From IMG/VR virus record IMGVR_UViG_3300020044_003173, positions 1-61,879 of that record: a DNA stretch of 61,879 nt. One strand, given 5' to 3'. Origin of the DNA: a virus. Lineage: Duplodnaviria; Caudoviricetes. The notes under the pieces were generated by a model. The model saw only the letters and a list, made by a program, of their open reading frames with translations. It made no database searches and had not been told where the DNA came from. Every line of letters starts with the position of its first letter. Position 1 is the first letter of the stretch. This document shows, one piece after another, positions 6,339-24,095 of the stretch. Made by a program: the position numbers and the translations under genes.

Positions 6339-6353
6339 CACCCTACCCCCCGG

Positions 6354-6623: not shown

Positions 6624-7294
6624 CACCACCTCCTAGGCTTATGATGCGGACATTCTGTCACGGGACACCACCCGCATAAAGGGCCACTTATAGGATTGAA
6701 CACACCCGACTGCTCAGCCGCCTCAAGGCGCTCAAGCTCCGCGTCGAACACGCTCAGGTAAGTGTCCCGATCCGTACAGTTATGTTCTTTGGTTATGAGG
6801 TCGCCGCTGACGACGTAGGCCAGGGCGGACTTGACTTCCTCCACCTCAGGGAAATGCACGAAGATAGCACCCGCCAGAAGGTCTAGCTGCTTAGGGTCTG
6901 CATACCGGGCGTTCTTACCCGTCTTGTAGTCCACCAAACGGGCTTTGGGGCCGTTGATCACAACCAGATCAGCGATACCCCGCCACCACACGCCATTATC
7001 AAAGAAGCCGCAAGGCTCGTAGCCACCATCTACCTTGCGCAACGCGAGCTTCAACTCGCAGTGCTTCTCCCCGTCAAGCCGCTTAAGCGAAGCCAGGATA
7101 GGCTCCATGTATCGGTACTTAGCGGGGATAGGCACATCGGACTTTACGTGGTCTTCGGCAGCCTTGTGCACATCCTGCCCATATATAGAAGCTTCGCTAC
7201 CTTGGTCCTTAACGTCGCGAGCGATCTTAAGGTGGTAGTACTTCTTAGGGCACTGATCGAACGTCTTGATGCTGCTGTAGGACCACGTAACCAT
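6623..7294 (-). CDS. PD-(D/E)XK exonuclease (Cas4/RecB-like)
   Basis: WSYSSIKTFDQCP, GIADL, DYKTGK, QL, C-terminal CGWCPVTEC. Confidence 0.88.
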   Translation of the reverse strand: MVTWSYSSIKTFDQCPKKYYHLKIARDVKDQGSEASIYGQDVHKAAEDHVKSDVPIPAKYRYMEPILASLKRLDGEKHCELKLALRKVDGGYEPCGFFDNGVWWRGIADLVVINGPKARLVDYKTGKNARYADPKQLDLLAGAIFVHFPEVEEVKSALAYVVSGDLITKEHNCTDRDTYLSVFDAELERLEAAEQSGVFNPISGPLCGWCPVTECPHHKPRRW

Positions 7295-7296
7295 TG

Positions 7297-7506
7297 TTAC
7301 TCCGGCTTGGGTTTGGCTTTTGGCTTGGCCTTGTGCGCCAGCCGGGCTTCTAGGATACGGACTTCTTCCTTCAAAGTCTCGACCTGGGCTTGGTACTCCC
7401 GGTTCTGCTTGCTCAGGAAAATAACAGACTCCTCAAGCCCGTTCCGATCCTTGGACACAACGGTTAGGGCGTGGTTGAGGTGGTGGATGGTGGACCAGGG
7501 CCACAT
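7297..7506 (-). CDS. Hypothetical coiled-coil protein
   Basis: 69-aa ORF in a tightly packed operon. Confidence 0.6.
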   Translation of the reverse strand: MWPWSTIHHLNHALTVVSKDRNGLEESVIFLSKQNREYQAQVETLKEEVRILEARLAHKAKPKAKPKPE

Positions 7507-8039
7507 TATTTCGCCTCCAAATGATCAACGACCAGTGTAGCATACCCGGCGATATCCCGCCAGCTATCCACAAAGCTCGGGTCTCCGTTAACGATCCGCG
7601 CCAGCTTGGAACTGATCATATGCAAGGCTTCTAGCTGCACAACAGACCCCAAGTCCCCCGTAGTCATCCTCGCGGAAGCGAGCGTGTTCATAATATTATG
7701 GGTGGTGTTAGCCACGTCCTTAAAGTCGCCGTAGGTCTTCTGGCGATCTTGGAGGATAGCCTTGACAGGCTTCGGCTCTGCTTTGGGAGGGAGGTAATTA
7801 TCTTGAAGCGTGGTCCCGCGCCCCTTACCCATCTCGGGCAGAATAGCCTCGAAATCCACCGGCTTCGCCACGAAGGGCTTCGTCTTCTTCTTAGTCGGCT
7901 TATTGAAAAGCTGTCGGCGGTACTCATAGAAGTTACCATTGCCAACGCCGTAAAGTTCGAACGCTTGCTTGTAGGTAAGGTTCGGGTCTGCGCGCAGGTG
8001 GTCTTCGACTAGGGCTCGGATAGTCTTAGTTTCACTCAT
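7506..8039 (-). CDS. DUF6378-like protein
   Basis: ILQDRQKTYGDF...KLARIVNGDP..DSWRDIAGYA; start taken at MSETKT. Confidence 0.7.
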   Translation of the reverse strand: MSETKTIRALVEDHLRADPNLTYKQAFELYGVGNGNFYEYRRQLFNKPTKKKTKPFVAKPVDFEAILPEMGKGRGTTLQDNYLPPKAEPKPVKAILQDRQKTYGDFKDVANTTHNIMNTLASARMTTGDLGSVVQLEALHMISSKLARIVNGDPSFVDSWRDIAGYATLVVDHLEAK

Positions 8040-8050
8040 TTGCTCCATCC

Positions 8051-8833
8051 TCATTTGAGATTGCCACCGGACTTCACGATATCTCCGGTGTAAATATGGG
8101 TACCAACGTGGTCTAACTTTATGAACGGGTTGGCGTAGACCTTGCCACCGTGTTTGCGCCATAACTCGCAGAAGTGATAATCCTCCGAGAGCAGTGCGCC
8201 CGTTTCATCGATACTCGTCGCAAAGAACTCCTGTGTCAAGGGTTGGACAAAGTTTCCTTCGTCGTCGGTGAACGTGGTGGTCCTATATGAGGGCACTTTG
8301 TCAGCCAGCGTCTCAAAAACACTGCGCTTGATTAGCATGAAGCCCGTGCCGCCGTGGCGCACTTCAACCATACCCTCGGGGTCAGTCTCAGCGTGCTCAG
8401 TGCCGATCATATTGAAAACGAACGCTCCGCCGTAGTCCTTGAGCCCTGTCTTACCTTGCCCTGCGGCGGCCTCGACCTTAGCCCAGTCGATTTCCTTCTT
8501 AGGGTAAATCCCACACGCTATATCTCGGTCGGCTGCTAGAAGCTGCGCTACGTCCATCGGACCAAAAGAGATGTCCGCATCGATGAACATAAGGTAGTCT
8601 AGGTTTTTCTCTAAGAAGAGCCTAACGAGTGAGTTACGAGCCCTAGTTATCAGACTTTCGTTCATGATCTGCGCCCAAAACACGGGGACGCCTAGCTCAC
8701 GCATCTTAGCAACAGTGCCCAGCAGTCCTTGGACGTACAGCCCAGTGCACATGCCCCCGTACATAGGCGTAGCAATCATAATAGAAGGGCGTGCTTTAGG
8801 GTCTCTTACAGCTACCTTAACTTCATCGTTCAA
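8051..8833 (-). CDS. GT-A fold glycosyltransferase-like protein (copy 1)
   Basis: IATPMYGG, ESLITRARN, FIDAD (DxD), GTGFMLIKR, SEDYHFC, HVG. Confidence 0.75.
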   Translation of the reverse strand: MNDEVKVAVRDPKARPSIMIATPMYGGMCTGLYVQGLLGTVAKMRELGVPVFWAQIMNESLITRARNSLVRLFLEKNLDYLMFIDADISFGPMDVAQLLAADRDIACGIYPKKEIDWAKVEAAAGQGKTGLKDYGGAFVFNMIGTEHAETDPEGMVEVRHGGTGFMLIKRSVFETLADKVPSYRTTTFTDDEGNFVQPLTQEFFATSIDETGALLSEDYHFCELWRKHGGKVYANPFIKLDHVGTHIYTGDIVKSGGNLK

Positions 8834-9032
8834 GGGTCCAGCCCGCCTTTCGTGCAGCCTTCACCGCCTCGCGGTAGAGCTTCCTTTGAGATGTGAAAAT
8901 CTTGTTCAGCAGGTCCGGGTCCGCCACCGTGCACTTCGCGAGGGCGTCCTCTAGGTTCTTAACCGCCTCAAGGGTCTTACCCCCTATTAGGCGCACGGCT
9001 TTCACTTCGATATAGGTGGGGTGGTAGATCAT
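8823..9032 (-). CDS. Hypothetical protein
   Basis: Overlapping, co-oriented ORF. Confidence 0.55.
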   Translation of the reverse strand: MIYHPTYIEVKAVRLIGGKTLEAVKNLEDALAKCTVADPDLLNKIFTSQRKLYREAVKAARKAGWTLER

Positions 9033-9319
9033 TCGTCCGTCCCCGTCTGCTCGATGTAACCCTCACGCCAAGTCTCAATGACCTGACGTTGCCGCTCGAT
9101 CTCACGCATGGCGCACTCGTAGTGCTGCGGCCCCCAAGAAAAACATGTTTCCCCATGAGTTCCGATACGGTTTAGTCTGTTTTCCTCGTAGTGCAGAGCT
9201 TTAGTGAGGCGTTCGATTTGGGTTACACCCCACTCCCGCGCATTATCCCGCTCCTTAGTCAGTCGTTCGATCTCTTCTTCAGCGCGGTCGTATTCGGTGA
9301 TCTCGGGATGGTTGGTCAT
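9029..9319 (-). CDS. Hypothetical coiled-coil protein
   Basis: ATGA overlaps at both ends. Confidence 0.6.
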   Translation of the reverse strand: MTNHPEITEYDRAEEEIERLTKERDNAREWGVTQIERLTKALHYEENRLNRIGTHGETCFSWGPQHYECAMREIERQRQVIETWREGYIEQTGTDE

Positions 9320-9450
9320 CTCACACCTCTATGGACTGCACCAAACTCACGAACTACCAACGGCGCGGGGCGGCTCAGGTAGAAGCCTAGGGACAACCCC
9401 ACTACGGCAGCCACGAGAAGGAAGAGAAATTGCTTTCTTGGATTGAACAT
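9316..9450 (-). CDS. Small membrane protein, 44 aa (MFNPRKQFLFLLVAAVVGLSLGFYL...)
   Basis: Read manually; AGGAG SD, one TM helix, ATGA overlap. Confidence 0.6.
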   Translation of the reverse strand: MFNPRKQFLFLLVAAVVGLSLGFYLSRPAPLVVREFGAVHRGVR

Positions 9451-9459
9451 TAGTTGCTC

Positions 9460-10059
9460 CTAACTAGTCCGCGTGCATCGTAGCGAACCGTTTATTAGTT
9501 TAACGTAACTCCAGTTGGCCGAGGGAATACCCAGTAGGCGTCTTGCGTGCACCTTAGCTGCATTGGGTATCCTGTGAGGGCACCCGGTAATAACTCTCGA
9601 CTGCCCTACTCGCATCGTACTCAGGTGGTTCGCCACCTCGTTGTTGTGTTCCTTACCAGGGTAGGGCGTTCCGTCTGGTACCCGTGTCACCAGCACGTTG
9701 CCCGTGTCCAGAGTTTGACTGTGCCACGTAGCCTGGGGGGCTTGCAAGTGTTTTTTTGCGGTATTTCGCGCGCTCGTCAGCGCCCCAGATGTGGTCGGCG
9801 GCAAAGTGATAGTATCACCCACCTCAAGAGCAATGAGCGCCTTGGAGACATGCCCCAGCGGGTAGGCACCAGCATTAGGTTTAGCTGGCGGGTTTCTGCG
9901 TCGAATAATCTCCGCAATCAGGGAGTTAAGCTCCGCTACGCTACAGACAACTTTACCTGCGTCTGCGACCTCTATCCACGTCGCTTCTTTGTTGCTCTTG
10001 CCCGCGAACTGAAGCTTCAGGCGGATCGTACCTAGACGGTCATCACTCACGCGTTGCAC
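9460..10059 (-). CDS. Hypothetical protein with an internal two-domain duplication
   Basis: LEVGDTITL...W..TRV repeated as MRVGQSRVI...W..CTRT. Confidence 0.6.
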   Translation of the reverse strand: MQRVSDDRLGTIRLKLQFAGKSNKEATWIEVADAGKVVCSVAELNSLIAEIIRRRNPPAKPNAGAYPLGHVSKALIALEVGDTITLPPTTSGALTSARNTAKKHLQAPQATWHSQTLDTGNVLVTRVPDGTPYPGKEHNNEVANHLSTMRVGQSRVITGCPHRIPNAAKVHARRLLGIPSANWSYVKLINGSLRCTRTS

Positions 10060-10646
10060 TACTTGGCTCCGTTCTTTTGCACGGCTAGTTGGTACCCCGT
10101 ATGCAGGATGCCTAGCTCTTCCGCGAAGATGTTAAGGAAAGCGTCGATAGCCAGTTTAGGGCGATGAAGGATGTCTCTTGGGCCTCCCCACAGGTAATCA
10201 TCGAACACCATAACTCCCCCGGCCTTCAGGCAGGGCCAAGCCATGCACGCATCGGTAAGCACGTCCTTGGCGATATGCGACCCATCCACGTAGATGAAAT
10301 CGAACTGCGGGGTTTCGTACAGAAGGTTAAGCGCAGACACCGAGTTCATCTTCATCTTGGAGATGATACGTTTAGGGTATCTCTCCTTTAGAAGAGCCAT
10401 GTTCGCATCGAACCGGGCTTCCGCTCCTTCTAGCTCCCCGCCCTCATGCTCCTCCCCGCCAGTCCACGTATCGACCGCACTGAGGATGCCTCCGTCCTCA
10501 AGCATGTTCTCAGCGATCCATACGGCGCTGCGCCCTTCGAAGGACCCTATTTCTAGGAACCGCTTACGTGCAGGTAGCCCGGGGAGTAGCTTGGAGAAAA
10601 TATCGGGTGCCCAATGGAACCAATCTTTTGTGTACGTGTATTCCAC
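10059..10646 (-). CDS. Class I SAM-dependent methyltransferase (Methyltransf_24-like)
   Basis: FLEIGSFEGRS, FDFIYVDGSH, LKAGGVMVFDDY. Confidence 0.85.
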   Translation of the reverse strand: MEYTYTKDWFHWAPDIFSKLLPGLPARKRFLEIGSFEGRSAVWIAENMLEDGGILSAVDTWTGGEEHEGGELEGAEARFDANMALLKERYPKRIISKMKMNSVSALNLLYETPQFDFIYVDGSHIAKDVLTDACMAWPCLKAGGVMVFDDYLWGGPRDILHRPKLAIDAFLNIFAEELGILHTGYQLAVQKNGAK

Positions 10647-10662
10647 GTTGTATCCTTTTTGG

Positions 10663-12495
10663 TTATTTACAATCGTAGTAGGTCGGGCCGTAGCCCACCT
10701 CGCAGTTAAGCGGTAACTCCAGCGCCCAGTCCGGACGGATGCGCATAGCCATCTCCATATATTCCTTGGCTAGCTCAGCTTCTCCTTCCGGCACCAGCGC
10801 CACGATGCTATCGTGCACGGTCATAACCACGGGGTACTTGCGGTTCACCCTGAGCATCTGCTCACCGATGATGATGCGAGCTAGGGCCTGACAGACGTTC
10901 TCGATAACTTTACTCGCGTATATCCGCGTCGTGATCGTGCTCCGACCCTTCTTGGTGTCGTAGACGTATTCCATCTTCATTGTGTCAGGGTTTTCTTGCC
11001 ACCGCAGGTTCGGGTACCTCAGGTACATCCCATTAGGGAGCCGGATACCCTCTTGCCCGTCTACCTGTAACAGCCCGTTACGCCCGAAGGAGTAGCTCTG
11101 GTCTCCTATGATCGCAGCGAACACACCCTTGGCGCTCTCCCAAAGCTCAGGGATAGCAGAATAAGAAGTACGGTAAGTGCTAATAGTATCCCGGGCTTCG
11201 TCTTCGGTAAGAGTAACCGAAGGTTTAGAAGTTTTAAGTGTAGCTTGGAGCTTAGCCCAGCCGGTGCCGTAGCCGCATCCTAGAATTACTGTTTTGCCTA
11301 CAAAGCGTTCGATCTTATCTATGTCTTTCTCGTCTTTGTTGTAAATCTTAGACGCCATTTGCTTATAAACATCTTCGCCCCGGTCGAAGGCTTCGACCAG
11401 ATCATCCTGCTCCGCGAGCCAAGCCAGGGTTCTAGCCTCAATTTGTGAGGAGTCGCCGCCCAGTAGGACTTGGCCTTTAGGGGCCTTGATAGCCTTCTTA
11501 ATAGCTCCGTTGCGAGGGAGGTTCTGCATATTCACCGACCCTCCAGCACCAGACCAACGCCCCGTGTGCGCCCCATAATAAGTGAGGGGGATAGGGAGCG
11601 TACCCCTAGCCGCGATATCAATAAGGCGCTTCGTGCGGGTCTCTTCGATAGTCGATTTCGTGCCCAGGCGGGCGGCCATGAGGGTCTGCACTCCTAGATG
11701 CTCGTGTTCTAAGAGAGCCATGAAGGCTTCGTCGGTCTTGGAGAAAGCGTAGGTCTCCTTGCCCGTGGTAGGGCTTACCTTCATAGGGGGCTCGACCCCC
11801 ATGTTCCGCAGTTCCTGAGCAAACCGGGGGTTGCTCATGAGGTCTTCGCGCTCGCACTTCACGGCTGATAGCCACGAGAGTTTTGCGATTTCTATGTCCC
11901 CAAGGTAGTCTTGCAACAGATACGCATCCAACTCCAGCTTAGGCTCGGTGAACATGCGGATCGTAAGGTCGATCAGCTTTAGCTCTTCCAGGGGGAAGCC
12001 AGCTACCAAAACATTGAAGAGCGCGTAAGTTAACTCGGTGTCGTTGCAGCAGTACGCCCCGTAGGCGGCTAGTTCTTCCTCGGTGAAGTCCGCCCGGCGC
12101 TTGCCCAGCGCGGCGACAACCTCGGTACCCTTCTCGCCCAACCCATAGGCTTTGACTAGGTTCGCCAAGCTCACGCTCGGCTGACCCAGCGCCCGCGCCA
12201 TACTCAAGGTATCGACTATCCGCTTAGGCTTGATCCCAAAATGCCACCCCAGGATCGCCACGTCAAACGCAGCGTTGTGCGCAACAACAGCAGAACTTTC
12301 AAAGGGGAACCGATCAAGGAAAGCTTTGGTCTCCTCGTGTGTCCCGCTGAACCACTCGGTCGGCCCGTCATCCACCTTTACGGAGACACCGATAACCTCA
12401 AACTCAGACGAGCGGATATAAGCTTCCTGGGTTATCTTGGAGAGGGAATACTCCTTGGAGTAGAAGGATTCGAAATCGCAAACAATTACCTTCAT
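10663..12495 (-). CDS. DNA polymerase family A with 3'-5' exonuclease
   Basis: DFES and HNAAFD (exonuclease); HTGRWSG, NMQNLP, DSSQIEAR, RFVGKTVILGCGYG, TVHDS. Confidence 0.95.
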   Translation of the reverse strand: MKVIVCDFESFYSKEYSLSKITQEAYIRSSEFEVIGVSVKVDDGPTEWFSGTHEETKAFLDRFPFESSAVVAHNAAFDVAILGWHFGIKPKRIVDTLSMARALGQPSVSLANLVKAYGLGEKGTEVVAALGKRRADFTEEELAAYGAYCCNDTELTYALFNVLVAGFPLEELKLIDLTIRMFTEPKLELDAYLLQDYLGDIEIAKLSWLSAVKCEREDLMSNPRFAQELRNMGVEPPMKVSPTTGKETYAFSKTDEAFMALLEHEHLGVQTLMAARLGTKSTIEETRTKRLIDIAARGTLPIPLTYYGAHTGRWSGAGGSVNMQNLPRNGAIKKAIKAPKGQVLLGGDSSQIEARTLAWLAEQDDLVEAFDRGEDVYKQMASKIYNKDEKDIDKIERFVGKTVILGCGYGTGWAKLQATLKTSKPSVTLTEDEARDTISTYRTSYSAIPELWESAKGVFAAIIGDQSYSFGRNGLLQVDGQEGIRLPNGMYLRYPNLRWQENPDTMKMEYVYDTKKGRSTITTRIYASKVIENVCQALARIIIGEQMLRVNRKYPVVMTVHDSIVALVPEGEAELAKEYMEMAMRIRPDWALELPLNCEVGYGPTYYDCK

Positions 12496-12579
12496 AACCC
12501 AAGCTTCTTTTGGAGGGACTGGAATACTCCTGGGGGAGGAGAGACGGTTTGTTGAGGAGCGGAGGTAAGTTTTTTGTGG

Positions 12580-13065
12580 TTATATAGCTTCTAGGTTAGC
12601 TTGGGTTTGGTTTTGCAAGGCTTGGGCTTGGGCTTGGGCTTGGGCTTGGGCTTGGGCTTGGGCTTGGGCTTGGGCTTGGGCTTGGGCTTGGGCTTGGTTG
12701 TATGGAGTTAAAGTGGTGGGATACCCCTGCACAGCCGTACCAGTAACCAAACTATGACCCGCACACGTGCCATATGGAACCGCGACATTCATAGTGTTAC
12801 TAAACTCCTCCTCTTCCTCCACAGGCATGAGCGTGCTCATGACGCACCGAGTGAAGCTTTCGCCTTGGAGGGAGTAGTACTTTTCTCGGAGGATTTTTAG
12901 TTCTTCGGGAGTGAAACAACAGGCACGGCCATTTTCGTCAGTAATGAGATCATAGTAAAGCCAATCCCACTTCTGCCTCGCTAGGTGGCTCTTACCCCAA
13001 TACCCAGTGAACTCCTCGGGGTGGCTGTCCATGCGAGCCAGGATAATCTCGATACCCTTGTTCAT
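12580..13065 (-). CDS. Hypothetical protein with a (QA)13 tract
   Basis: ATGA overlap with VRR-NUC; [19 protein letters not shown]. Confidence 0.7.
12619..12696. repeat. Perfect hexamer microsatellite (GGCTTG)13
   Basis: Counted directly. Confidence 0.95.
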
Positions 13066-13340
13066 CGTAGCGCCTCTTGCAACTCGTCCATGTTCGTTTC
13101 GTTAATGACCAAGGCTACGCCTCCCGCTTGGTGGATCGCCTCTAGCTCCCGCGCCTGAAGCGCGGTGGGCTTGCCCTTACCAGCCTTGCACTCGATACCG
13201 AAAAACTTACCCTCCAGACAGGCCACAATGTCAGGCACACCGCTACGGCCATAGCCGTGCGTAGCAGGGAAGAAATAGTAGGCTCCAGCGGCCTTGAGGA
13301 TGCTCACGACCTTGGCTTTGACTTTTGCTTCTGGGGTCAT
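13062..13340 (-). CDS. VRR-NUC domain nuclease (possible Holliday junction resolvase)
   Basis: MTPEAKVK, GVPDIV, GIECKAG, PTALQ. Confidence 0.88.
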   Translation of the reverse strand: MTPEAKVKAKVVSILKAAGAYYFFPATHGYGRSGVPDIVACLEGKFFGIECKAGKGKPTALQARELEAIHQAGGVALVINETNMDELQEALR

Positions 13341-13372
13341 GGGCGCATCATACACTGTCCAATGAAGGAAAG

Positions 13373-13406
13373 AAAACCCCCCACGCATTTTTTCTGCGCG
13401 GGGGGT
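13373..13406 (-). terminator. Putative intrinsic terminator
   Basis: ACCCCCCACGCA/TGCGCGGGGGGT hairpin followed by TTTTCT on the minus strand. Confidence 0.5.
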
Positions 13407-13421
13407 AACAGGGGTTACGGA

Positions 13422-13586
13422 TTAGCTAACAAGCACCAACCGGCGCTCCGCGAACGCCACGAGGATATCCCTCTTAAGCAGGTGCGCGTCCGGTCGGGAA
13501 TGATAGTAAGCCTGAGCTTCCTTAGGGAGTCGCGCTGCGCGCTCGGCCCGCTCTATGCGGGTTTTGTAGTATCTAGCTTTCTTCAT
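13422..13586 (-). CDS. Hypothetical protein, 54 aa (MKKARYYKTRIERAER...)
   Basis: Read manually; fills the gap. Confidence 0.5.
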   Translation of the reverse strand: MKKARYYKTRIERAERAARLPKEAQAYYHSRPDAHLLKRDILVAFAERRLVLVS

Positions 13587-14448: not shown

Positions 14449-14459
14449 AATGTTTGCTC

Positions 14460-15311: not shown

Positions 15312-15357
15312 AGCTTGTTGCTCCTTGTTTGTGGGGCTCCGCCCCGTGTAACGTCCG

Positions 15358-15404
15358 TTACTTCTTCGCTTACTTCTTCGCTTACTTCTTCGCTTACTTC
15401 TTCG
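15358..15404. repeat. 12-bp tandem repeat (TTACTTCTTCGC) x~4
   Basis: Seen directly; duplicates the 3' end and stop of the upstream gene. Confidence 0.9.
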
Positions 15405-15648: not shown

Positions 15649-15649
15649 G

Positions 15650-15886
15650 TTATTCTCCTCTTGCTTTGTCCAAAGCCCGGTCACGTATGCGGATAGCCTT
15701 GTCCATCCAGTCCATAACCTGCTCGCGCAGGATGTTAAGGGAGACGTAAAGCTCCCTTGCGTCGTTGTCTCCAGCATGGTCGCGCAACCTCCGCCGAGCG
15801 TCCGTGATCTCCCGCAAGGCAGCCTCCACCTTGCGCGTAGCGAACCGCACTTCTGTACGGGAGAACTCTTTTCCGTTGGTGTCCAC
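15650..15886 (-). CDS. Hypothetical protein
   Basis: 78-aa helical ORF coupled to the VWA gene. Confidence 0.55.
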   Translation of the reverse strand: MDTNGKEFSRTEVRFATRKVEAALREITDARRRLRDHAGDNDARELYVSLNILREQVMDWMDKAIRIRDRALDKARGE

Positions 15887-17115: not shown

Positions 17116-17308
17116 CGTCTGTCTCCTGTTTGAACATCTTAAGGGCTATACGGTAAGCGTCTAGTTCGTCCTTGGCAGTAACGTACCTTGGGTTAGAGCT
17201 TAGTGGGTGGTCGTGGTAGCAAGCGAATACAAAATCCTCGGTACCGTTTGCCTCTCTTCGTGTGCGGTATATTGGTCTAACCCCCAATATCTTTGTTTCG
17301 TGCTCCAT
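17072..17308 (-). CDS. Hypothetical protein (DELDAY paralog 2)
   Basis: Shares the DELDAY motif with its neighbour. Confidence 0.55.
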   Translation of the reverse strand: MEHETKILGVRPIYRTRREANGTEDFVFACYHDHPLSSNPRYVTAKDELDAYRIALKMFKQETDDGYRGTQGQGRPAR

Positions 17309-17483
17309 TTATCACCGCCATTGCTTTCTTGTAGGCGTCTAGCTCGTCTACTACGATGAAACTAAGCCATCTACGCGGCATGTCTGCAGTAGTATGAACT
17401 TTGAATTGGCTAAGACCATCTTCTAACGTCTCCGAAATTCTAGTAACAGAGAGGACTCGACGCTTATCCTTTACTTTCGCCAT
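17277..17483 (-). CDS. Hypothetical protein (DELDAY paralog 1)
   Basis: GGAGG SD; DELDAY motif. Confidence 0.6.
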   Translation of the reverse strand: MAKVKDKRRVLSVTRISETLEDGLSQFKVHTTADMPRRWLSFIVVDELDAYKKAMAVINGARNKDIGG

Positions 17484-17513
17484 CTAGTAACCTCCGTTAC
17501 CTCTTGAGTAACC

Positions 17514-18608
17514 CTACAGAATATCTTCGTTTTTTGAGACCCAGTTTGCGAACGCTTTGCAACCAAAGGCGATAGACTGCTTAACCCGGTCCTTCGCCAT
17601 GCTAATGCAGAACACCGCCTGCCATTGCGGATCGAGACGCTGCACGTACTCCATGAAGGGCGTCATGGTATCCTTAGTCACTTTGAACGGAGCACCGTAG
17701 ACGAGCACCGCGCACGCACCGGGATCGACAGGCACTTGGGTACGCTTGGGGTCGGAGATGATCGCCTCCCAGGAGGGAAGCTGGTCGCTGTACTGAATGA
17801 AAGCCTCGATCCCACGGGCCGCACTCTCGCCCACGGTGCCCGCCAGGGACGCAATGAGCAACTGGCTGTCGTCCGCGAAAATCTGATCTCTACCCCACAG
17901 GACGTGAGACGCACGCTCAAGCGAGCGACCCGTGACGAAAGCCCCGGCCATGACCTTGCGAGGGTTGTTGATATACGGATTGTCCGCCTGTCCCTCGTCC
18001 TTGTACGAAGCCATACACTCAGGGTTTTGATCGACCCAGGCGCACAGAGCCGGGTGAATTTTTCCACGCGCCCAGGCCAGCCACTCCTCGGCGGTGGGCT
18101 TTCTGATTTTGAGCCGCGTCATCCGGTTGAGAGTGTGAGCTTGTAGAGTATCTCCCAACCCCTCGGCGGAGGTGTTGCCCGTGGCGCAGATCATGCTCCC
18201 TTCCGGAAGATATAGGTCGCCCAGGCGTGGGCGGTTCTCAAACAGGGAGTGCAGCGCGTTGCGCACGGGGGCGGACGCCTTGGAAAGCTCGTCAATCATA
18301 AGGAGCACCGGGCGGTTCTCGCGGATGGCCTCTTGGATGCGGAAGCGCGAGTTGGGTGCGTAGCGTGTAACCATCTGTTCCCGGTCAACGACCGGCATGG
18401 CGTCGTCGCCCAGGTTCATGTTAGGCGCATCGATAGGCGGCGGGCAGATCGCATGGGGGACCATCTCGGCAATGGTGTCACGCAGGGCCGTCTTACCAAT
18501 GCCCATCTCGCCCTCAAGCATGACGCGGATATTAGGGCAGGACACAATAAGCTTAGCCGCTTGGGCGAGGGACACTTCCGTACCCAGATCGAGAGTAGCG
18601 TTAGTCAT
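17514..18608 (-). CDS. MoxR-like AAA+ ATPase
   Basis: GEMGIGKT, LLMIDE, ATGN, LNRM; AAGGAG SD. Confidence 0.88.
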   Translation of the reverse strand: MTNATLDLGTEVSLAQAAKLIVSCPNIRVMLEGEMGIGKTALRDTIAEMVPHAICPPPIDAPNMNLGDDAMPVVDREQMVTRYAPNSRFRIQEAIRENRPVLLMIDELSKASAPVRNALHSLFENRPRLGDLYLPEGSMICATGNTSAEGLGDTLQAHTLNRMTRLKIRKPTAEEWLAWARGKIHPALCAWVDQNPECMASYKDEGQADNPYINNPRKVMAGAFVTGRSLERASHVLWGRDQIFADDSQLLIASLAGTVGESAARGIEAFIQYSDQLPSWEAIISDPKRTQVPVDPGACAVLVYGAPFKVTKDTMTPFMEYVQRLDPQWQAVFCISMAKDRVKQSIAFGCKAFANWVSKNEDIL

Positions 18609-18719
18609 AGTCGTTGCTCCTTGGGTGCTCCGCACCCGCTTAGGCCGTAACGGTCGTTACGGGGTTGTTTGCTTTCTTGTTTCTTAGTTCTTGCTAGGTC
18701 GTCTTCTTATTATTCGAGT

Positions 18720-18748
18720 ATTATACCACCTAACCTTTACAGAGTCAA
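18720..18748 (-). promoter_or_regulatory. Strong sigma70-type early promoter
   Basis: TTGACT-17nt-TATAAT. Confidence 0.8.
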
Positions 18749-18754
18749 TAGGGG

Positions 18755-19036
18755 TTACACAGGGGTCTGTGTAAGTGCGTCCGCCAACCGCTCCGCCAGC
18801 ACCAGGGATAGCTCGGTATCCGCCAGAGCTATAAGTTCCTCGTTCTCTAGCATCCTGTAGTAGGAGCGGTCGCGGGTTGGTTTAGCTTCTTGTTTTTCTT
18901 CTCCTATGATCTTCATCCAGGCGTCGAGCGTGGCTTCTTGGGTGGCGGGTGTAGTCAGGTCCCACCATTCCTTCCAGGCTTTGCCCAGACCCTTGCGGGA
19001 TAGGATATCGTCTACGATTCTGGTAGCTGCGCTCAT
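18755..19036 (-). CDS. Hypothetical protein
   Basis: 93-aa ORF, co-oriented. Confidence 0.6.
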   Translation of the reverse strand: MSAATRIVDDILSRKGLGKAWKEWWDLTTPATQEATLDAWMKIIGEEKQEAKPTRDRSYYRMLENEELIALADTELSLVLAERLADALTQTPV

Positions 19037-19038
19037 GG

Positions 19039-19239
19039 TTAGTTCTTTCCGCCGACTAAAAGCCCCAGGCCAATAAGCCCGATGAGGGTGAGACAGACGA
19101 CCGTAACGGGCGTTACCCAGTAATTATGTTTGTTCCCCATCCAGGCCACCTCGCCCTGGAGTATGGGCAGGTGGGTGTTGGCGTTGGTCCCGGCCTTGAG
19201 CCGGGCGTACTCGTTGCGGTAGTTCGGTGCGTCGTTCAT
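19039..19239 (-). CDS. Small membrane protein
   Basis: ATGA overlap; C-terminal TM helix. Confidence 0.55.
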   Translation of the reverse strand: MNDAPNYRNEYARLKAGTNANTHLPILQGEVAWMGNKHNYWVTPVTVVCLTLIGLIGLGLLVGGKN

Positions 19240-19451
19240 TGTTTCCCCGCTAGGCCACAGGTGCCATGTTCGGTTGATAAGGGTCCGTCTGAGAAACTCC
19301 GGTGCCAGCGCCACGCCATGCAGTCGGAGGCGATGCAGAAACAGCCGATATCTACCTTTCCATCTGAGCGCCTATTGGCCGAGTAATCACCTTGATCGGC
19401 TGACGAACGTGCCGCCGGACACCACTTGGTCTTGGCTTCGTCTTCGGTCAT
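19236..19451 (-). CDS. Cys-rich small phage protein
   Basis: [12 protein letters not shown]...[11 protein letters not shown]...GTCGLAG. Confidence 0.7.
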
Positions 19452-19907
19452 TGGATATTTCCTTCTAAGTTAACGCCTATGGCTCCCTCAAGGTTGGCTC
19501 CCTCAAGGTTGGCTTCCCGAAGGTCGGCTCCCCCAAAGGTCGGCTCCCCGAAGGTCGGCTCCCCAAAGGTCGGCTCCCTCAAGGTTGGCTTCCCGAAGGT
19601 CGGCTCCCCCAAGGTCGGCTCCCCGAAGGTCGGCTCCCCAAAGGTCGGCTCCCCAAAGGTTGGCTCCCCGAAGGTCGGCTCCCCGAAGGTAGGCTCCCCG
19701 AAGGTTGGCTCCCCGAAGGTAGGCTCCCCGAAGGTCAGCTTCCCGAAGGTTGGCTCCCCGAAGGTCGGCTCCCCAAAGGTCGGCTTCCTTGAGGAATACC
19801 CCAGCTAGCTGCGCTCCGGGGAGTTGAGTGAAGAGGAGGTCAGCGCACCAAAGGGTGTCGCTTGGGTAGGTTAGGAGGGTTACGCCCTTGGCGTTCTTGA
19901 TATCCAT
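19448..19907 (-). CDS. Pentapeptide repeat protein with a +1 frameshift near its 3' end (stop at 19503 as assembled)
   Basis: A(D/N)L(R/W)G repeats encoded by 15-bp units; the units continue out of frame after a C5 run at 19530-19534. Confidence 0.85.
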
Positions 19908-19908
19908 C

Positions 19909-20094
19909 TTACTCTTCCTCGCAGAAATAGCAGGTGTCGGGGTTGTTGTTATTATTCTGTAGGTATCCACCGCATGATGTGCACGTAGGAGCCCTGTGAG
20001 GGGCAGGGGCGGTGCGGTGAGGCAGGGGCGTGGGGTGCAGGTCGATCTCTTCCAAGGTCCAGCCCAGCTTCGTATCCACAAAGAGCGTACGCAT
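19909..20094 (-). CDS. Small zinc-ribbon protein
   Basis: CTSCGG...CYFC; AGGAG SD. Confidence 0.6.
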   Translation of the reverse strand: MRTLFVDTKLGWTLEEIDLHPTPLPHRTAPAPHRAPTCTSCGGYLQNNNNNPDTCYFCEEE

Positions 20095-20105
20095 TTGGTT
20101 TTCTC

Positions 20106-20276
20106 CTAACGGTGAAAGAAGAGCAGCCACACGGCGGAGGCCGTGAGCACGCCGCAGTCTGTGGCATCGGGGGTTAATGTTATGTCGAGCCACACAGGCC
20201 GCCCTGCGGCGTAGGCGAGGGTAAAGGCTACCGACCCTAGAAACACGGCCGCCATGAAGTTCCAGAACAAGCGCAT
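20106..20276 (-). CDS. Small membrane protein
   Basis: GGAG SD; two hydrophobic segments. Confidence 0.55.
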   Translation of the reverse strand: MRLFWNFMAAVFLGSVAFTLAYAAGRPVWLDITLTPDATDCGVLTASAVWLLFFHR

Positions 20277-20332
20277 TTGGTTTTCTCCGTTTAGTTTTTC
20301 TAACAGGGTGTAACGGGGGTTACACCGTGCAC

Positions 20333-20668
20333 TTAGTCCCAGAGGTTGCCCAGGTGGGCAGCTACCCAATACATCGCGCGTTGGGCTTCGGTGTATAGCT
20401 CGTCTTCTTCGCCGGGGCGGTCTCCGCGCGTTTCAAAGTGGGTTGACCAAGCGAGCAGGGCTTGGCCGTGGGTGCGCAGGGCTTCTTCCCAGGCTTCGTA
20501 GGAGTGGCTGTACGGGTGCCCATGTGCATGGGCGCTAAGGAACACTAGGCGGGCTCCCAGCCACGCGCACAGGGATGTGTGGAGGCTTACACAGTCGCGG
20601 CCCACAGGGGTGCCCCAGGTGCGGCGGTAGCGCAGCTTGCGCTGGAGCTTCTTGAGCAGGGTCTTCAT
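20333..20668 (-). CDS. Hypothetical protein
   Basis: AAGGAG SD; ends HLGNLWD. Confidence 0.65.
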   Translation of the reverse strand: MKTLLKKLQRKLRYRRTWGTPVGRDCVSLHTSLCAWLGARLVFLSAHAHGHPYSHSYEAWEEALRTHGQALLAWSTHFETRGDRPGEEDELYTEAQRAMYWVAAHLGNLWD

Positions 20669-20700
20669 GGGTTTCTCCTTAGGCGCTCCGCGCCTGCTTC

Positions 20701-21033
20701 TTATGCCTTGATCCAGTGGTCGTGGTCTTTGTACTTGATGCTCTCGGAGCCGTCGTACTCATTGATGACGAACTCGGTGCCTTGGGGCACCCAGACGATG
20801 TGCAGGTTGCTCACGCCCCCCGTGTAGGGCGGGTCCTCAGGGGCGAAGATCGACGTAACGAGCGTTACGATCTCCTCATCCGTCTTGTTGGCTTCCACGG
20901 CCTCCACGATGCGCCTGTCGAACATCAGGATATTCGTTACGCCGGGTTCGTAATTCCAAGTGGACCAGCCCGCACCGTAGCCGGGGGAAATGAGCACGGC
21001 CACTTGGCCGTCGCGGATCAGCTTCTCAGTCAT
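20701..21033 (-). CDS. Conserved hypothetical phage protein
   Basis: VAVLISPGYGAGWSTWN...INEYDGSESI; AGGAG SD. Confidence 0.75.
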   Translation of the reverse strand: MTEKLIRDGQVAVLISPGYGAGWSTWNYEPGVTNILMFDRRIVEAVEANKTDEEIVTLVTSIFAPEDPPYTGGVSNLHIVWVPQGTEFVINEYDGSESIKYKDHDHWIKA

Positions 21034-21120
21034 TTTGTTTCTCCTGTAACAGCCGTTACGCCCTGCACGAGCGTGCAGGTCGGGCGCGTCCGCGCCGGGG
21101 TCGTTTTTAATCATTCGAGT

Positions 21121-21149
21121 AGTATAGCACTGATTGTTTACAGTGTCAA
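21121..21149 (-). promoter_or_regulatory. Sigma70-type early promoter
   Basis: TTGACA-17nt-TATACT; shares CTGTAAA and downstream ACTCGAAT with the 18720 promoter. Confidence 0.8.
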
Positions 21150-21493
21150 TAGGACATGCACAGGGGGTTGTGCATGTCGGGGGTGAATTTGGTTGTTGCT
21201 GCGGGTCGGGCTTGAGTACCGACTACCCCGTTAACCGATATTTGATCCGCGCCTGTTTTGGCCAATTGCAGCCATCTCGTGCGTCGGTCTGGCCCGTGTG
21301 CACACGGGGGGCACCACAGTCAGCGCACTTCCTTCAGTGCTGCCGCAGCAGGGGGTGTGTAACATATTTGGACGGGTAGGGAACTATCCAAAGTGCAATT
21401 CATCCGCAGGGTGTAACCGCCGTTACGGCCAAATTCAATTCACGTATGTAAATTGGAGGGCTGAATTTGAAAGTTTTACCCGGGTAGAATGGA

Positions 21494-21813
21494 ATGTAAT
21501 GATTGTAATGCTTTTTGGAGGGGCAAATTACGGTCGATTGGACAGTCAGAATGGGCAGTTCCCCTCGGGGAGAGGATGTTTTGGGGGGGTAATGTTAATT
21601 GTAATAGTCTTTTAGAGATATACTATGGGGATTTGGGATTTCTCTTGACACTCCTGCCACCTGCCGTGCCCCTAAATCCCTTACTAAAATCCGAAAAAAG
21701 CATTACACATAACATTATACAGAGTCAAACACAAAATACCTTTAACATTCCAGTGCTTACGAGCCTCGCCCCTGCAAAACCCGCGTAATGCTCGCCTCCA
21801 AAAAGCATTACAA
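21494..21813. repeat. Inverted-repeat / iteron-like region; candidate replication origin
   Basis: 30-bp imperfect inverted repeat 21503-21532 / 21784-21813 (19 bp identical) plus further TGTAAT..CTTTT copies. Confidence 0.5.
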
Positions 21814-22105
21814 ATGAATTCTGAAAAGATTACAAAGCTTGAAAAAGTGTCGAAATTCTCACATTGTGAGAAAATAGCGTGGTTTTTTGTGTCCCACGAG
21901 TGTACACCGGGGAGCAAGTCGAGGGACACAAATGGGGGGGTCTGTGGGACACCCAATATCCAGCCGAGGAACACAAATAGGGTATCCAGTACACGCAAAA
22001 ACCCCCTGTACACAACTCATTCTTCCTGTAACTTTTTAAGCCGCTTGTGCGGCGCCCGAAACTGGGATACCATGTGGCTACTAGGTGGTTCCTCAGGAGG
22101 TAACA

Positions 22106-22645
22106 GTGGTTACAAAGAATCGGATGCTCGTTTCCCCGCAAGTGGTGGAAGTTCTGAATAGTATCGCTACCGCAAATGAAATTACCGTCCCCGCAGCCCT
22201 GCGGATGCTGACCAAAGCCTATGCCCGGGGAGATTTCAGACTTAGCCTGGACGATCTTCCAATAGCCCCCAAACCCGGCGACCCTAATGCACCAATCCTA
22301 TTCGACGGTAAGCCAGGGCTTACCGTGCGCGACCCGCGCGACGTGGATTTGACCTACCTTTATCTTATGGTGCAGGACAGGATAGCCGCAGGGGCCCGGC
22401 ACGAGTACCACATCCTCCAGTGGCTTATAGAAATTCTAACAGCCAGCAAGGACAGGATACATTACAAGGACGAGCCCCCCCTGCCCGTCCTGACCCTGCC
22501 TGCCAGCGTGGACGAGTTCCGTCCCGCGCCTAAACCAGCCAAGCAGCGCGTGATCTATGAGGGCCTTGTTACCGGGTCCGGCAAACCCGAGCCCGATATG
22601 TACGATCCCGACTGGGTGGCTAGCCTGGGCGTCGTTGACGAGTAA
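22106..22645 (+). CDS. Putative regulator with an N-terminal ribbon-helix-helix-like region
   Basis: AGGAGG SD + GTG; NRMLVS-PQVVEVLNSIATAN-EITVPAALRMLTKAY beta-alpha-alpha pattern; only credible plus-strand gene seen in the early arm. Confidence 0.55.
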   Translation: MVTKNRMLVSPQVVEVLNSIATANEITVPAALRMLTKAYARGDFRLSLDDLPIAPKPGDPNAPILFDGKPGLTVRDPRDVDLTYLYLMVQDRIAAGARHEYHILQWLIEILTASKDRIHYKDEPPLPVLTLPASVDEFRPAPKPAKQRVIYEGLVTGSGKPEPDMYDPDWVASLGVVDE

Positions 22646-22660
22646 CGGCCGTTACGGGGT

Positions 22661-22832
22661 TTAGTGCCTTCATCCCCGCGTTACTGTCATCGGACCCGGT
22701 AACACGTCGTTACAGGGTGGGGATCGGGGGAGGTACTAGGTGGGGTATAAGGTGCATTTCATGCGGTGGGTAGCTGGATGAAAGCGCTTTCATCCTTAGT
22801 GCCTTCATCCCCGCGTTACTGTCATCGGACCC
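22661..22832. repeat. Two 37-bp direct repeats (22661-22697, 22796-22832) with a 20-bp perfect palindrome at 22776-22795
   Basis: TTAGTGCCTTCATCCCCGCGTTACTGTCATCGGACCC twice; GGATGAAAGCGCTTTCATCC. Confidence 0.9.
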
Positions 22833-22879
22833 CTCGCCGTGACGGCGGGGGCACTTGCGTCGCGTTCGCAACCAGGGAC

Positions 22880-22910
22880 AAAAAAAGGGCCCCGACTTTC
22901 GCCGGGGCCC
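22880..22910 (-). terminator. Intrinsic terminator
   Basis: GGGCCCCGGC-GAAA-GTCGGGGCCC-TTTTTTT right after the 22917 stop. Confidence 0.85.
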
Positions 22911-22916
22911 GAGGTG

Positions 22917-23627
22917 TTACTTCACCAGTCTGGGATCGATATTGATCGTGATCATGAACGCTTGAAGGGCGGCGTAGATTTCCTCCTCGCGTTCATCCAG
23001 CGCGTCGTCGCCAGCGGCGACGTGCGCCGTCCGTCCCGCCTTATAGAGTTTGATAATCTCGTCCCTGACACGGACCTTAAAGGACCGGACCGTCTTAGGT
23101 TCCGGTTTGGGCGGCTCGGGAGGCGTCATACCGGCGTCAACTGCCGCTTGCCTAGTAGCGAGGAACGCCGCTTCCGCCGCCGCCTCACGTCCGTCCTGCT
23201 TTACGCGTGAGACGCGCATTTTCGCGCCTTTATAGTCGGGATTGCCAGCGACCTTGAACGCCGCCTCTAAGCCTTCCTTATATTCTTTATCCTCTTGTGC
23301 GACCGCCTTGCACAAGAGGGCCGACAAGGCGCCGGTATCCTTCGAAGTCACATCGTACCATGTGACATTCGTTCCGAACCACGGACGATCAGGGTGCGAG
23401 TAGTATGCCTCACGCGCGGCGGCGTATGCCTTGGAGGACATGACGCCGTCTATCGCACCCTTGATCGCCATGTTACGCGCGTCAACCACGTCCGCCTGCA
23501 TGACAGGCGCACCCGCCGCGATATCCGCTTGGCGCTCGGTGGAAGCGATAGCCGAAACCGCCTTGGCCGCTTCTTCTTGCGCCTTGCCAACCAGAACGAA
23601 GGCGGCGTTATTCGTACGCTTTGTCAT
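22917..23627 (-). CDS. Hypothetical early protein
   Basis: GGAG SD before MTKRTNN; followed by a terminator. Confidence 0.7.
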   Translation of the reverse strand: MTKRTNNAAFVLVGKAQEEAAKAVSAIASTERQADIAAGAPVMQADVVDARNMAIKGAIDGVMSSKAYAAAREAYYSHPDRPWFGTNVTWYDVTSKDTGALSALLCKAVAQEDKEYKEGLEAAFKVAGNPDYKGAKMRVSRVKQDGREAAAEAAFLATRQAAVDAGMTPPEPPKPEPKTVRSFKVRVRDEIIKLYKAGRTAHVAAGDDALDEREEEIYAALQAFMITINIDPRLVK

Positions 23628-24095
23628 AGTCTTAGTCTCCGGTGACGATCCCGTCACGTCCGCCCTACGCACAACGCATAGGACGGGCGACGCGGGACCG
23701 CCCCGGTCCGCTTCGTTAGGTGTTTTTTACAATGTCAAAGACCGTTCAACATTAAGGTCACGATCCATCGCCGTAGTCAATCGCAAGGCGTAACGGACCG
23801 TTACATGGTGGCTAAGGCGTTGTTTTTATTAGGGAATATGGCGACCCCACTAGGGGGGCACCCCCCAAGGCCAGGAAGGGACTCCGCCCCCGCGCTCTCC
23901 TTACTAATACGCTCAAAACCCCACACAATTTTCAGTTTTTACCCCGCGAGGCTCGTTTTTTGCTCTGCGGAGGGTCTTCTGCCGTGCGTAGAGTATTAGT
24001 TGTGTGGGGCTAGGTAGGCTCTATGCACGACAGAAGACCCCCCCACCCCCTATTTTTCCCCAGCTAGCCACCCCACCCCCGCCACTTAGCGAAAC

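Follow-up and report, generated by a model that had tools for sequence, protein, structure and literature searches.

The palindrome is iterated along the early arm of the genome

The stretch analysed here, referred to as the window, is the whole IMG/VR virus record IMGVR_UViG_3300020044_003173 (Duplodnaviria; Caudoviricetes), and our subject is a short palindrome, GTAACNNNNGTTAC (GTAAC-N4-GTTAC), that is iterated along its early arm. With 61,879 bp and direct terminal repeats, the record represents a complete phage genome, so that scans of it were exhaustive. Genes on the minus strand extend from 249 to ~21,100 and encode a DUF927 primase-helicase, an 84-aa helix-turn-helix (HTH) protein, an SNF2 helicase, a PD-(D/E)XK nuclease, DNA polymerase A, an Hjc-like resolvase, a VWA/DUF2201 protein, a MoxR-like AAA ATPase and a pentapeptide-repeat protein, along with many small open reading frames (ORFs). 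A divergent, largely non-coding region (21,150-24,300) precedes a plus-strand packaging and structural operon with an intein-bearing large terminase, a portal, a Mu-gpT-like capsid protein, SU10-type adaptors and a 2065-aa PLxRFG/DarB-like protein. Pfam scans, which here and below covered 64 window proteins, revealed no integrase or immunity repressor, and searches of the window for Rfam families and tRNAs found none.

Twelve exact matches to GTAAC-N4-GTTAC start at 7287, 13405, 15348, 17487, 18647, 19103, 20310, 20855, 21046, 21413, 22100 and 22642, compared with a mean of 0.06 in dinucleotide-preserving shuffles (n=100), none of which reached 12. Three further matches with five central bases (N5; 0.06 expected) start at 11067, 22699 and 23790. 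The initial annotation had listed these same 12 N4 and three N5 copies and had put the chance expectation at about 0.06; every coordinate proved exact on the full-record scan, and the shuffles returned the same expectation. All other spacings from N0 to N3 and from N6 to N11 were empty in the window, as was a control scan with the pattern read backwards. Because allowing one mismatch added no copy (1.49 expected by chance), the set is all-or-nothing, without degenerate members, and all 15 copies share a G...C outer pair around a TAAC/GTTA core. Together they occupy 7287-23804, or 26.7% of the genome, for which simple arithmetic gives 0.267^15, ~2.5e-9; 12 of the 15 lie within 13405-23804. No exact copy was present in 1-7286 or in 23805-61879 when the whole record was scanned. 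The absence of copies from the late arm, previously claimed by eye, was thus borne out, and neither this arm nor the shuffled controls show the copy density of the early arm.

Both strong promoters of the window are followed by a copy in the 5' untranslated region (5'UTR), ahead of a Shine-Dalgarno (SD) sequence and an ATG. A sigma-70-like promoter on the minus strand (21121..21149; TTGACA-17-TATACT with a TG, 11/12 positions) lies upstream of the copy at 21046..21059, which is placed at about +55 to +68 in the 5'UTR of the first leftward early gene, is directly followed by AGGAG-N7-ATG on the minus strand and lies 12 nt before this start codon. The second promoter (18720..18748, minus strand; TTGACT-17-TATAAT with a TG, 11/12 positions) precedes the copy at 18647..18660, located at about +53 to +66 in the 5'UTR of the MoxR-like AAA ATPase gene and 38 nt before its ATG. 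Other copies coincide with gene boundaries. At the junction held by the copy GTAACCATTGTTAC (7287..7300), one arm contains the TAA stop of gene 7297-7506, and the spacer contains the ATG of the PD-(D/E)XK nuclease gene (6623-7294). The spacer of the copy at 17487..17500 holds GGAG, 3 nt before the ATG of ORF 17277-17483. The copy at 22100..22113 directly follows AGGAG and covers the GTG start of the near-orphan gene 22106-22645, and the left arm of the copy at 22642..22655 contains the TAA stop of the same gene. The copy at 13405..13418 is placed between the stop of a small gene at 13422-13586, encoding a ribbon-helix-helix (RHH)-like protein, and a terminator-like hairpin directly after it (13376..13406, minus strand; 12 pairs, then a T-rich tail).

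Further copies are located 36 nt 5' of the ATG of a conserved gene of ~290 codons (15348..15361), 33 nt 5' of the ATG at 20276 on the minus strand (20310..20323), 66 nt 5' of the ATG at 19036 and within the uncertain ORF 19039-19314 (19103..19116), in the divergent, largely non-coding region 21150-22085 (21413..21426), immediately past the first copy of an exact 37-nt direct repeat (22661-22697 and 22796-22832; N5 copy at 22699..22713), and in an intergenic region between divergent genes, right next to the ATG of the doubtful ORF 23805-23999 (N5 copy at 23790..23804). Only three of the 15 copies fall in gene bodies by our gene reading, namely the one at 19103, the N5 copy at 11067..11081 within the minus-strand DNA polymerase A gene (10663-12495), and the one at 20855..20868 inside gene 20701-21033, where it is translated as V-T-L-V-T. 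Where copies sit near start codons, distances run from overlap up to 38 nt. The earlier description of the copies as mostly intergenic or on translation starts, with the one at 7287 over an ATG, those at 17487 and 22100 on SD sequences and that at 21046 abutting one, therefore agrees with these placements. Of note, the copy at 15348 is preceded by three 12-nt tandem units, GAAGAAGTAAGC (15362-15400, minus strand), that abut the palindrome; their GTAAGC resembles the half-site GTAACG, and the first unit contains the stop codon of gene 15394-15777. GGA-triloop hairpins adjoin two copies and are not enriched (2/28 six-pair triloop hairpins).

The window palindrome is one allele of a family-wide element

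The conservation of the palindrome was analysed in related phages. Nine loci were first retrieved via the ATPase, seven as full-length matches at 45-51% identity and two as end fragments at 59-60%. None of the nine contained GTAAC-N4-GTTAC. They carried palindromes of their own, with CTAACA-N-TGTTAG present in five loci (19, 11, 10, 2 and 6 copies) and GTAGCGT-N-ACGCTAC in one (10 copies). A wider search with an alignment of the VWA protein yielded 80 loci with 1,050,388 bases, out of at least 528 relatives in IMG/VR. We define the family, a grouping made in this analysis, as podophages sharing the AAA-ATPase/VWA gene pair. Across the 80 loci, TAAC-Nn-GTTA occurred 936 times with these three spacings, 733 times with N3, 168 times with N4 and 35 times with N5, as compared to 6-29 for other spacings and 13-58 for the reversed control CAAT-Nn-ATTG. 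The usual form is (ac)CTAACA-W-TGTTAG(gt), that is ACCTAACA-W-TGTTAGGT, on a core of TAAC-N3-5-GTTA; variants include ATAACA-N-TGTTAT, CTAACA with two or three central bases, CTGACA-NN-TGTCAG and CTAAC-WWW-GTTAG. One locus of the 80 (L084, eight exact GTAAC-N4-GTTAC) has the window's form as its main form. The G+C content of the relatives ranges from 41% to 56%, and the core is nevertheless constant.

In portal similarity (~39-44%), Planktothrix phage Pag-Yong1 and the Pelagibacter phages HTVC023P and HTVC027P come closest among named phages, with Roseobacter CRP-901/902 and some Caulobacter phages being more distant; by megablast, the early arm matched no GenBank phage. Within its first 50 kb, Pag-Yong1 contains 22 copies of GTTCA-N3-TGAAC, mostly CGGTTCAG-S-CTGAACCG (GGTTCAG-N-CTGAACC). 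No palindrome was found in the relatives L010, L011/G004, L033, L049 and L066/G003, nor in HTVC027P. The window shares with the family the inverted TAAC/GTTA core, a centre of 3-5 nt and many near-perfect copies. Its palindrome (G-TAAC-N4/5-GTTA-C) is thus a local version, one allele, of an element common to a large family of ~60-kb aquatic podophages, and the conservation in related phages that the initial annotation had suggested checking exists, mostly with half-sites and spacings other than the window's. In a palindrome-free relative (L100:1920-2000) we observed about nine tandem 8-nt units, AACTAAAC, 5' of a gene, the unit resembling the CTAACA half-site.

Copies are confined to one arm and recur at the same places

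In six complete relatives, ~90% of the mapped copies lie in one early stretch of ~10 kb. G001, a genome of 63,264 bp that is syntenic with the window, has 19/19 copies in 8905-18758 (9.9 kb), from the small terminase gene to the DNA polymerase gene. The corresponding numbers are 18/19 within 10 kb in G008, 16/18 within 10.9 kb in G006, 13/14 within 9.4 kb in G007 and 15/17 in a single stretch spanning the record ends in G009; G005 has 17 copies, and the seven among those listed all lie within 4.6 kb. The same arm, bounded by the packaging genes and the DNA polymerase gene, holds the copies of the window, 12/15 of which lie in 13405-23804. Individual sites recur as well. A palindrome in the 5'UTR of the ATPase gene is common to the window (18647), G001 (12922) and G002 (10931), each phage having its own sequence; the conserved ~290-aa gene has one on its 5' side both in the window (15348) and in G001 (15912); and one immediately precedes the terminator that lies 5' of the resolvase gene, again in the window (13405), G001 (18030) and G002 (15918). 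Two of the three G001 promoters with 11/12 matches have a copy 21-56 nt past the likely start site. Taken together, these maps and counts show an element that is non-random, restricted to the early arm, present across the family and located at matching positions in different phages.

Selection at the nucleotide level and concerted spacing

From the related loci we collected 935 copies, of which 780 were unique with flanks and 772 had full flanks. Among the latter, 496 (64%) lie within crudely called ORFs, which cover 89% of the DNA; copies are therefore enriched about four-fold in intergenic DNA, and most are still intragenic. These intragenic copies offer a view on the level at which the element is maintained. 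The ATPase peptide SNIVR is encoded as TCT AAC ATT GTT AGG, a palindrome, in 41/76 genes; where the genome has a different spacing type, a different palindrome or no palindrome, this site reads AGC AAC ATC GTC AAG, AGC AAT ATC GTG CGG or similar. A second site in the ATPase gene, ATA ACA ATG TTA, is present in 26/76 genes and even changes V/I to T. As judged from these codon patterns, the comparison shows an element selected at the nucleotide level, with intragenic copies built by codon choice. A reading of the TAA in the arm as a stop-start junction cassette was rejected, as the TAA frame was open upstream at 121/728 copies vs 219 and 174 in the other frames.

Spacing was equally informative. 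In a quick tree of the VWA protein (80 rows), motif types cluster, with 24 changes vs 35.3 in shuffles, and spacing flips among close relatives. L085 carries 15 copies with one central base (N1) and one with two (N2), L095 has 0 N1 and 13 N2, and L091 has 0 N1 and 22 N2; the three contigs, only 17-31% complete, are collinear and mostly 84-93% identical in DNA. About nine L085 sites map to L095 sites by coordinates from BLAST blocks. Three sites of this pair were aligned, and the centres of all three are shifted by one base; in one of them, AACTAAC-AATGTTAGG stands against AACTAACAAATGTTAGG, the flanks being otherwise identical. These alignments and counts show a spacing that is strict within a genome and changes in concert between genomes. 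A genome-wide change of spacing between such close phages argues for a co-evolving, phage-encoded reader that measures spacing, and against a conserved host factor.

Proposed operators of the early arm and rival explanations

We next considered how the element is recognized. Among the relatives' copies, 521 were perfect and 160 had one mismatch, and the TAAC/GTTA core was almost never altered. Changes that keep a G-U pair on the sense strand occurred seven times, as compared to 14 mirror-image changes, so that no wobble bias is apparent. The flanks are symmetric too (ac...gt), the centre is A or T (303 vs 213), and the N1, N2 and N3 types all retain the inner A/T of CTAACA/TGTTAG, though it is unpairable in an N1 hairpin. 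RNA folds of the window copies reached -2.9 to -4.1 kcal/mol in 7/15 cases, only 4/15 had z < -3, and the best fold at 19103 was not the hairpin. The stem sequence is invariant, without the covariation expected of a structural RNA hairpin or terminator, and matched no Rfam family. The near-invariant core, the absent wobble bias, the symmetric flanks and the weak RNA hairpins suggest recognition of bases rather than of structure.

Our preferred reading, which we hold tentatively, is that the palindromes are operators at which a symmetric DNA-binding protein regulates the early arm, the binder being putatively encoded by the phage. In such a system, a two-fold symmetric phage protein would read both half-sites on duplex DNA. 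It would encounter roughly one site per gene along an early arm that would be transcribed by the host RNA polymerase (RNAP), with sites in 5'UTRs ~50 nt after strong sigma-70-type promoters, at gene junctions, on start codons and in gene interiors. The bound protein would then act as a global regulator of this arm, most likely by silencing or roadblocking early transcription as infection proceeds, and the site-free late arm would stay open. We infer that a protein is the reader, that DNA is its target and that repression is the outcome. The initial annotation had proposed a phage-encoded regulon, either with operators or roadblocks or with RNA hairpins occluding ribosome-binding sites. The regulon is the best reading of the family-wide conservation, the shared positions and the concerted spacing changes; of its two modes, the operators or roadblocks are the tentative preference and the hairpins the less probable one.

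Several observations weigh against operators. Some relatives lack any palindrome, which marks the element as dispensable. A central ATG or GTG opens at least 40 codons at 168/780 copies, which suits a role at the RNA level, and SD-like words peak 12-14 nt downstream of copies. On the sense strand the centre is A-rich (AAAT 60 vs ATTT 29), in part explained by the central ATG starts. Moreover, some genomes mix spacings, which is awkward for a rigid dimer: 3/3 in L031, 5/6 in L064, 4/4 in L065, and 12 N4 with three N5 in the window.

A rival reading is an element acting in early mRNA, namely a short hairpin, located at the ribosome-binding site or immediately 5' of it, that would be read by a phage RNA-binding protein or an endoribonuclease. 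Used as a translational operator or as an intercistronic processing site, it would bring about shut-off, timing or processing of early cistrons. We regard this hairpin as unlikely, and its proposed outcome equally so. In its favour, window copies lie on SD sequences and start codons or 12-40 nt 5' of them, as well as in 5'UTRs past promoters and just before terminators; 91 of the 168 central-start copies in relatives have an SD-like word upstream, adding to the downstream peak of such words; the VWA gene begins within the palindrome in many relatives; and a count by eye in Pag-Yong1 places many intergenic copies immediately after a stop codon and ~22-23 nt ahead of the following ATG. The A-rich sense-strand centre points the same way, and a hairpin loop would easily tolerate the mixture of N4 and N5 in one genome. 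Short phage intergenic regions may, however, by themselves fix the distance to the ATG. The hairpins are weak, with AT-rich stems whose sequence stays the same across genomes of 41-56% G+C without compensating drift, and the missing wobble bias (7 vs 14) argues against pairing. The inner A/T of the N1 form is conserved in spite of the impossibility of a 1-nt loop, the central base, most exposed in a loop, is free to be A or T, and ~64% of copies lie inside the crudely called ORFs.

Other transactions of DNA could also use dispersed palindromes. The copies might be ParB/KorB-like loading or nucleation sites, serving to coat, protect, condense or segregate the early-arm DNA, or hotspots of recombination and cassette exchange, possibilities that we judge improbable. 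It would account for the high copy density in one ~10-kb stretch regardless of coding status and for the selection on intragenic copies. Copies also flank each hypervariable small early gene, most clearly in Pag-Yong1, the genome encodes a PD-(D/E)XK nuclease and an Hjc-like resolvase, and in cluster O mycobacteriophages insertions and deletions are bounded by palindromes, according to the portions of PMC4351075 at hand. Opposed to it are the lack of a ParB-like or partition protein in the Pfam scans, the 13-14 bp of identity, which would be very short for homologous exchange, and the copy-free replication and late arms, which it leaves unexplained.

The initial annotation had also considered a host factor of the NtcA/CRP family. 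The core of NtcA boxes is GTA-N8-TAC, which the window motif contains. The motif also equals GTAACnnnnGTTAC, the exact predicted consensus of the HcpR2 branch of the FNR family (PMC1274295). A pentapeptide-repeat gene and relatives labelled as cyanophages furthermore hint at a cyanobacterial host. We consider it very improbable that GTAAC-N4-GTTAC is read by a host dimer of the CRP/FNR family, be it of the NtcA or of the HcpR2 type. The spacing and the consensus fit, with 12 exact matches; as a general explanation the proposal is not supported, given the relatives' variants, the positions of the copies and the zero degeneracy. Relatives have other half-sites and spacings at the same places, such as CTAACA-N1-3-TGTTAG, spacing flips between phages that are 84-93% identical, and the core is unchanged at host-like G+C contents from 41% to 56%. 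Rather than lying at about -41.5, upstream of a -10 box, copies are found at +53 to +68 from promoters, on starts and in genes, without degenerate members and with three in the N5 form. Scanning cellular genomes for CCTAACAWTGTTAGG, the form common in the family, gave scattered, chance-like single hits and no regulons among the best 80 of at least 120 matches, a Dinoroseobacter genome described below being the one exception to single hits. A role as promoters of a virion or phage RNAP, akin to N4-like hairpins, was rejected. Pfam detected no RNAP, and the strong promoters are sigma-70-like. The 2065-aa protein was also discarded as an RNAP, since a PDB sequence search with it returned no RNAP hit and its C-terminus resembles, by tblastn, PLxRFG/DarB-like giant virion proteins.

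Returning to the operators, an extension of this reading, which we think improbable, would make palindrome and binder a fast-evolving specificity system, the immunity type of a lytic phage family. The binder would then silence the early arm of a co-infecting relative with the same half-site and spacing, and selection for escape would drive the concerted changes, even between ~90%-identical phages. The changes it invokes are spacing from N1 to N4, half-sites of CTAACA, ATAACA, CTGACA and GTAAC, and replacement by GTAGCGT-N-ACGCTAC or GGTTCAG-N-CTGAACC. If true, the logic of stoperator heteroimmunity would extend to abundant uncultured aquatic podophages.

Candidate binders

The search for a binder adds further points on the side against operators. 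Among the protein families encoded within 10 kb of the VWA gene, none follows the presence of the motif. One candidate is a 54-aa RHH-like protein (13422..13586, minus strand), which diverges from the other members of a small family that relatives retain at this position. The family gives weak BrnA hits and has a strand-helix-helix layout, and its monomer model reached a predicted local distance difference test (pLDDT) value of 66. As a homodimer it obtained a fold score of 0.47 vs 0.00 for the best control, a score reached by 20/30 proteins solved as same-chain pairs and by 1/23 solved as single chains. The homodimer runs agreed in at least 92% of contacts, with a partner pLDDT of at least 63, and the N-terminal strands paired antiparallel in the models, a likeness to RHH dimers of known structure that may stem from the model's memory. 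RHH dimers being well known, the homodimer score may equally reflect resemblance to solved structures. Homologs of this protein are present in the palindrome-free G004 and G010, and the protein is 99% identical between L085 (N1) and L095 (N2). On account of this identity across the N1/N2 pair and of its presence without palindromes, the RHH-like protein was rejected as the spacing determinant.

The remaining candidates are weaker. A 218-aa protein with an HTH-like N-terminus and a DUF6378 C-terminus (7506..8162, minus strand) has the same layout as the relatives' HTH+DUF3310 (SaV-like) family. That family was rejected as the binder because it does not track spacing, and it is missing from Pag-Yong1 despite the 22 palindromes there. 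The initial annotation had singled out the proteins encoded at 3138 and 22106 for binding assays. The first, an 84-aa HTH_23/HTH_28 protein (3138..3392, minus strand) adjoining the primase-helicase gene, is a weak candidate, and its ortholog in the palindrome-free G004 weighs against it. For the second, a word-indexed search returned only the protein itself, a full HMMER search found three other hits, one of them full-length (39% identity), and Atlas gave weak leads only (0.88); as a near-orphan, it cannot account for an element present throughout the family. Early proteins of the window, including that of 22106-22645, had no homologs in the related loci searched. A 344-aa gene 5' of the ATPase gene in relatives, absent from the window, proved to be merely fast-evolving (67% between two N2 phages vs 72-73% between N1 and N2) and was likewise rejected.

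Relation to known systems

The element is an iterated, operator-like phage palindrome, a known but poorly understood design. Its nearest analogue is the repeat of cluster O mycobacteriophages, TGTTCGG-NNN-CCGAACA. The accessible portions of PMC4351075 describe 34 copies in Corndog with invariant arms and an AAA/TTT centre, 14 of them intergenic, 10 near 5' ends and 10 in genes, absent from the host and with function unknown; its authors proposed dimeric regulators and judged a transcriptional role unlikely, the latter being one more point against operators here. Both elements appear as short perfect palindromes iterated tens of times, with near-invariant arms, a variable spacer and a mixture of intergenic, start-proximal and intragenic copies, the intergenic ones being concentrated in the non-structural operon (PMC4351075, in part). 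They differ in sequence and phage lineage, in arms of 7 bp around an AT-rich N3 as compared to arms of 5 bp around a GC-rich N4/N5 in the window, and in distribution, which is genome-wide in cluster O and ~90% within one ~10-kb arm here; the portions of that paper at hand give no spacing variants between relatives.

A precedent for iterated operators is provided by the stoperators of cluster A mycobacteriophages (PMC9283540, PMC6550527). In these phages, many copies of one short operator lie along transcription units, and a bound phage repressor stops elongation, which is the mechanism we favour here. The palindrome studied here differs in being perfectly symmetric, in a genome without integrase or immunity repressor in the Pfam scans, and its binding is putative. 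Stoperators are asymmetric 13-bp sites oriented with transcription and bound by a monomeric two-domain immunity repressor of temperate phages. The start-associated sequences of cluster K (SAS/ESAS) are repeats of 13 bp, present only in the non-structural half, linked to starts and of unknown function, as far as the consulted part of PMC3203893 describes them. They resemble our element in the link to starts, in sometimes containing the upstream stop codon and in being kept across subclusters before unrelated genes; they differ in being asymmetric, in one orientation, SD-containing and 3-7 bp from the start, whereas the palindrome is symmetric, at variable distance and often intragenic (PMC3203893, same part). 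The window palindrome thus falls outside the SAS class. HcpR2 boxes (GTAACnnnnGTTAC; PMC1274295) have a consensus and half-site geometry identical to the window motif, and the GTA-N8-TAC of NtcA boxes agrees with it as well. CRP/FNR boxes belong to host regulons with degenerate, promoter-proximal sites, in contrast to the 12 perfect copies in 5'UTRs, on starts and in genes.

Two further systems offer an analogy of design. KorB operators (OB) of plasmid RK2 are 13-bp palindromes at about a dozen dispersed sites read by one global regulator, and Type I restriction S subunits include nearly identical systems set apart by a single base in the non-specific spacer between the two parts of their site. 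The analogy is one of design only, and Pfam detected no ParB/KorB or HsdS homolog in the window. Full-text literature searches for the motif strings returned only the unrelated HcpR2 consensus and no description of the element, a search by the name Pag-Yong1 found no paper, and the papers searched on HTVC023P-type and CRP-901-type phages make no mention of palindromes, inverted repeats or promoters. For the related cultured group, a transcriptome exists of HTVC027P (PMC12753301), but this phage is without palindromes.

A few mycobacteriophage clusters are known to carry iterated palindromes that resemble operators, and the same design is now seen in a very large family of uncultured aquatic podophages. 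The system is tractable, as the core is kept over a wide range of G+C content and divergence, intragenic copies are under selection, and there are pairs of close relatives whose spacings are one base apart, which provides a natural genetic screen for the putative reader protein. A global silencer of the early arm, if true, would explain how early genes are switched off in phages without their own RNAP and would be a source of compact, orthogonal operator/repressor pairs.

Other features of the genomes

Several features bear on the host. Pag-Yong1 (L023, OL906435.1), Synechococcus phage MinM2 and Pra-JY27 were deposited for three different cyanobacteria, all with 65,014 bp and identical match statistics. 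The G+C content of Pag-Yong1 is 68% over the first 50 kb, far from that of Planktothrix, so that its true host may be an accompanying bacterium. The pentapeptide-repeat protein of the window (19503-20081; Pfam E-value 1.6e-38) lies among the early genes; the family is common in cyanobacteria, which makes it a weak hint on the host. Among the matches listed, one Dinoroseobacter metagenome-assembled genome carries CCTAACAWTGTTAGG on three contigs (L131, L161 and L168), including two copies 111 nt apart; these hits could be a prophage, a binned phage of the family or a clue to the host.

The large terminase gene (26710-30165) encodes 1151 aa, as compared to ~455-510 aa in relatives, and has Hint/intein-splicing and LAGLIDADG matches, which suggests one or two inteins. 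Just 5' of the rightward operon there is an exact 59-nt tandem duplication (24096-24213), each unit of which has a TTGACT and a CCCCC/GGGGG hairpin. A hexamer array of GCTTGG/CCAAGC with ~8-12 units (12645-12693) lies in gene 12580-13065 and appeared as a false terminator in our scan. The AT-rich and apparently non-coding stretch 21480-21860 contains repeated ATTACA(A)/TGTAAT words and could be an origin or a promoter cluster; at the equivalent place of G003, TCTTACAA(AG) occurs 11 times, clustered at 10795-12173. Finally, a 471-aa HNH/homing-endonuclease-like gene (36362-37777) follows the capsid gene and has no counterpart in G001, and a loose palindrome, ATAACTAGTGGTTAG, is found at 36339, just 5' of it.

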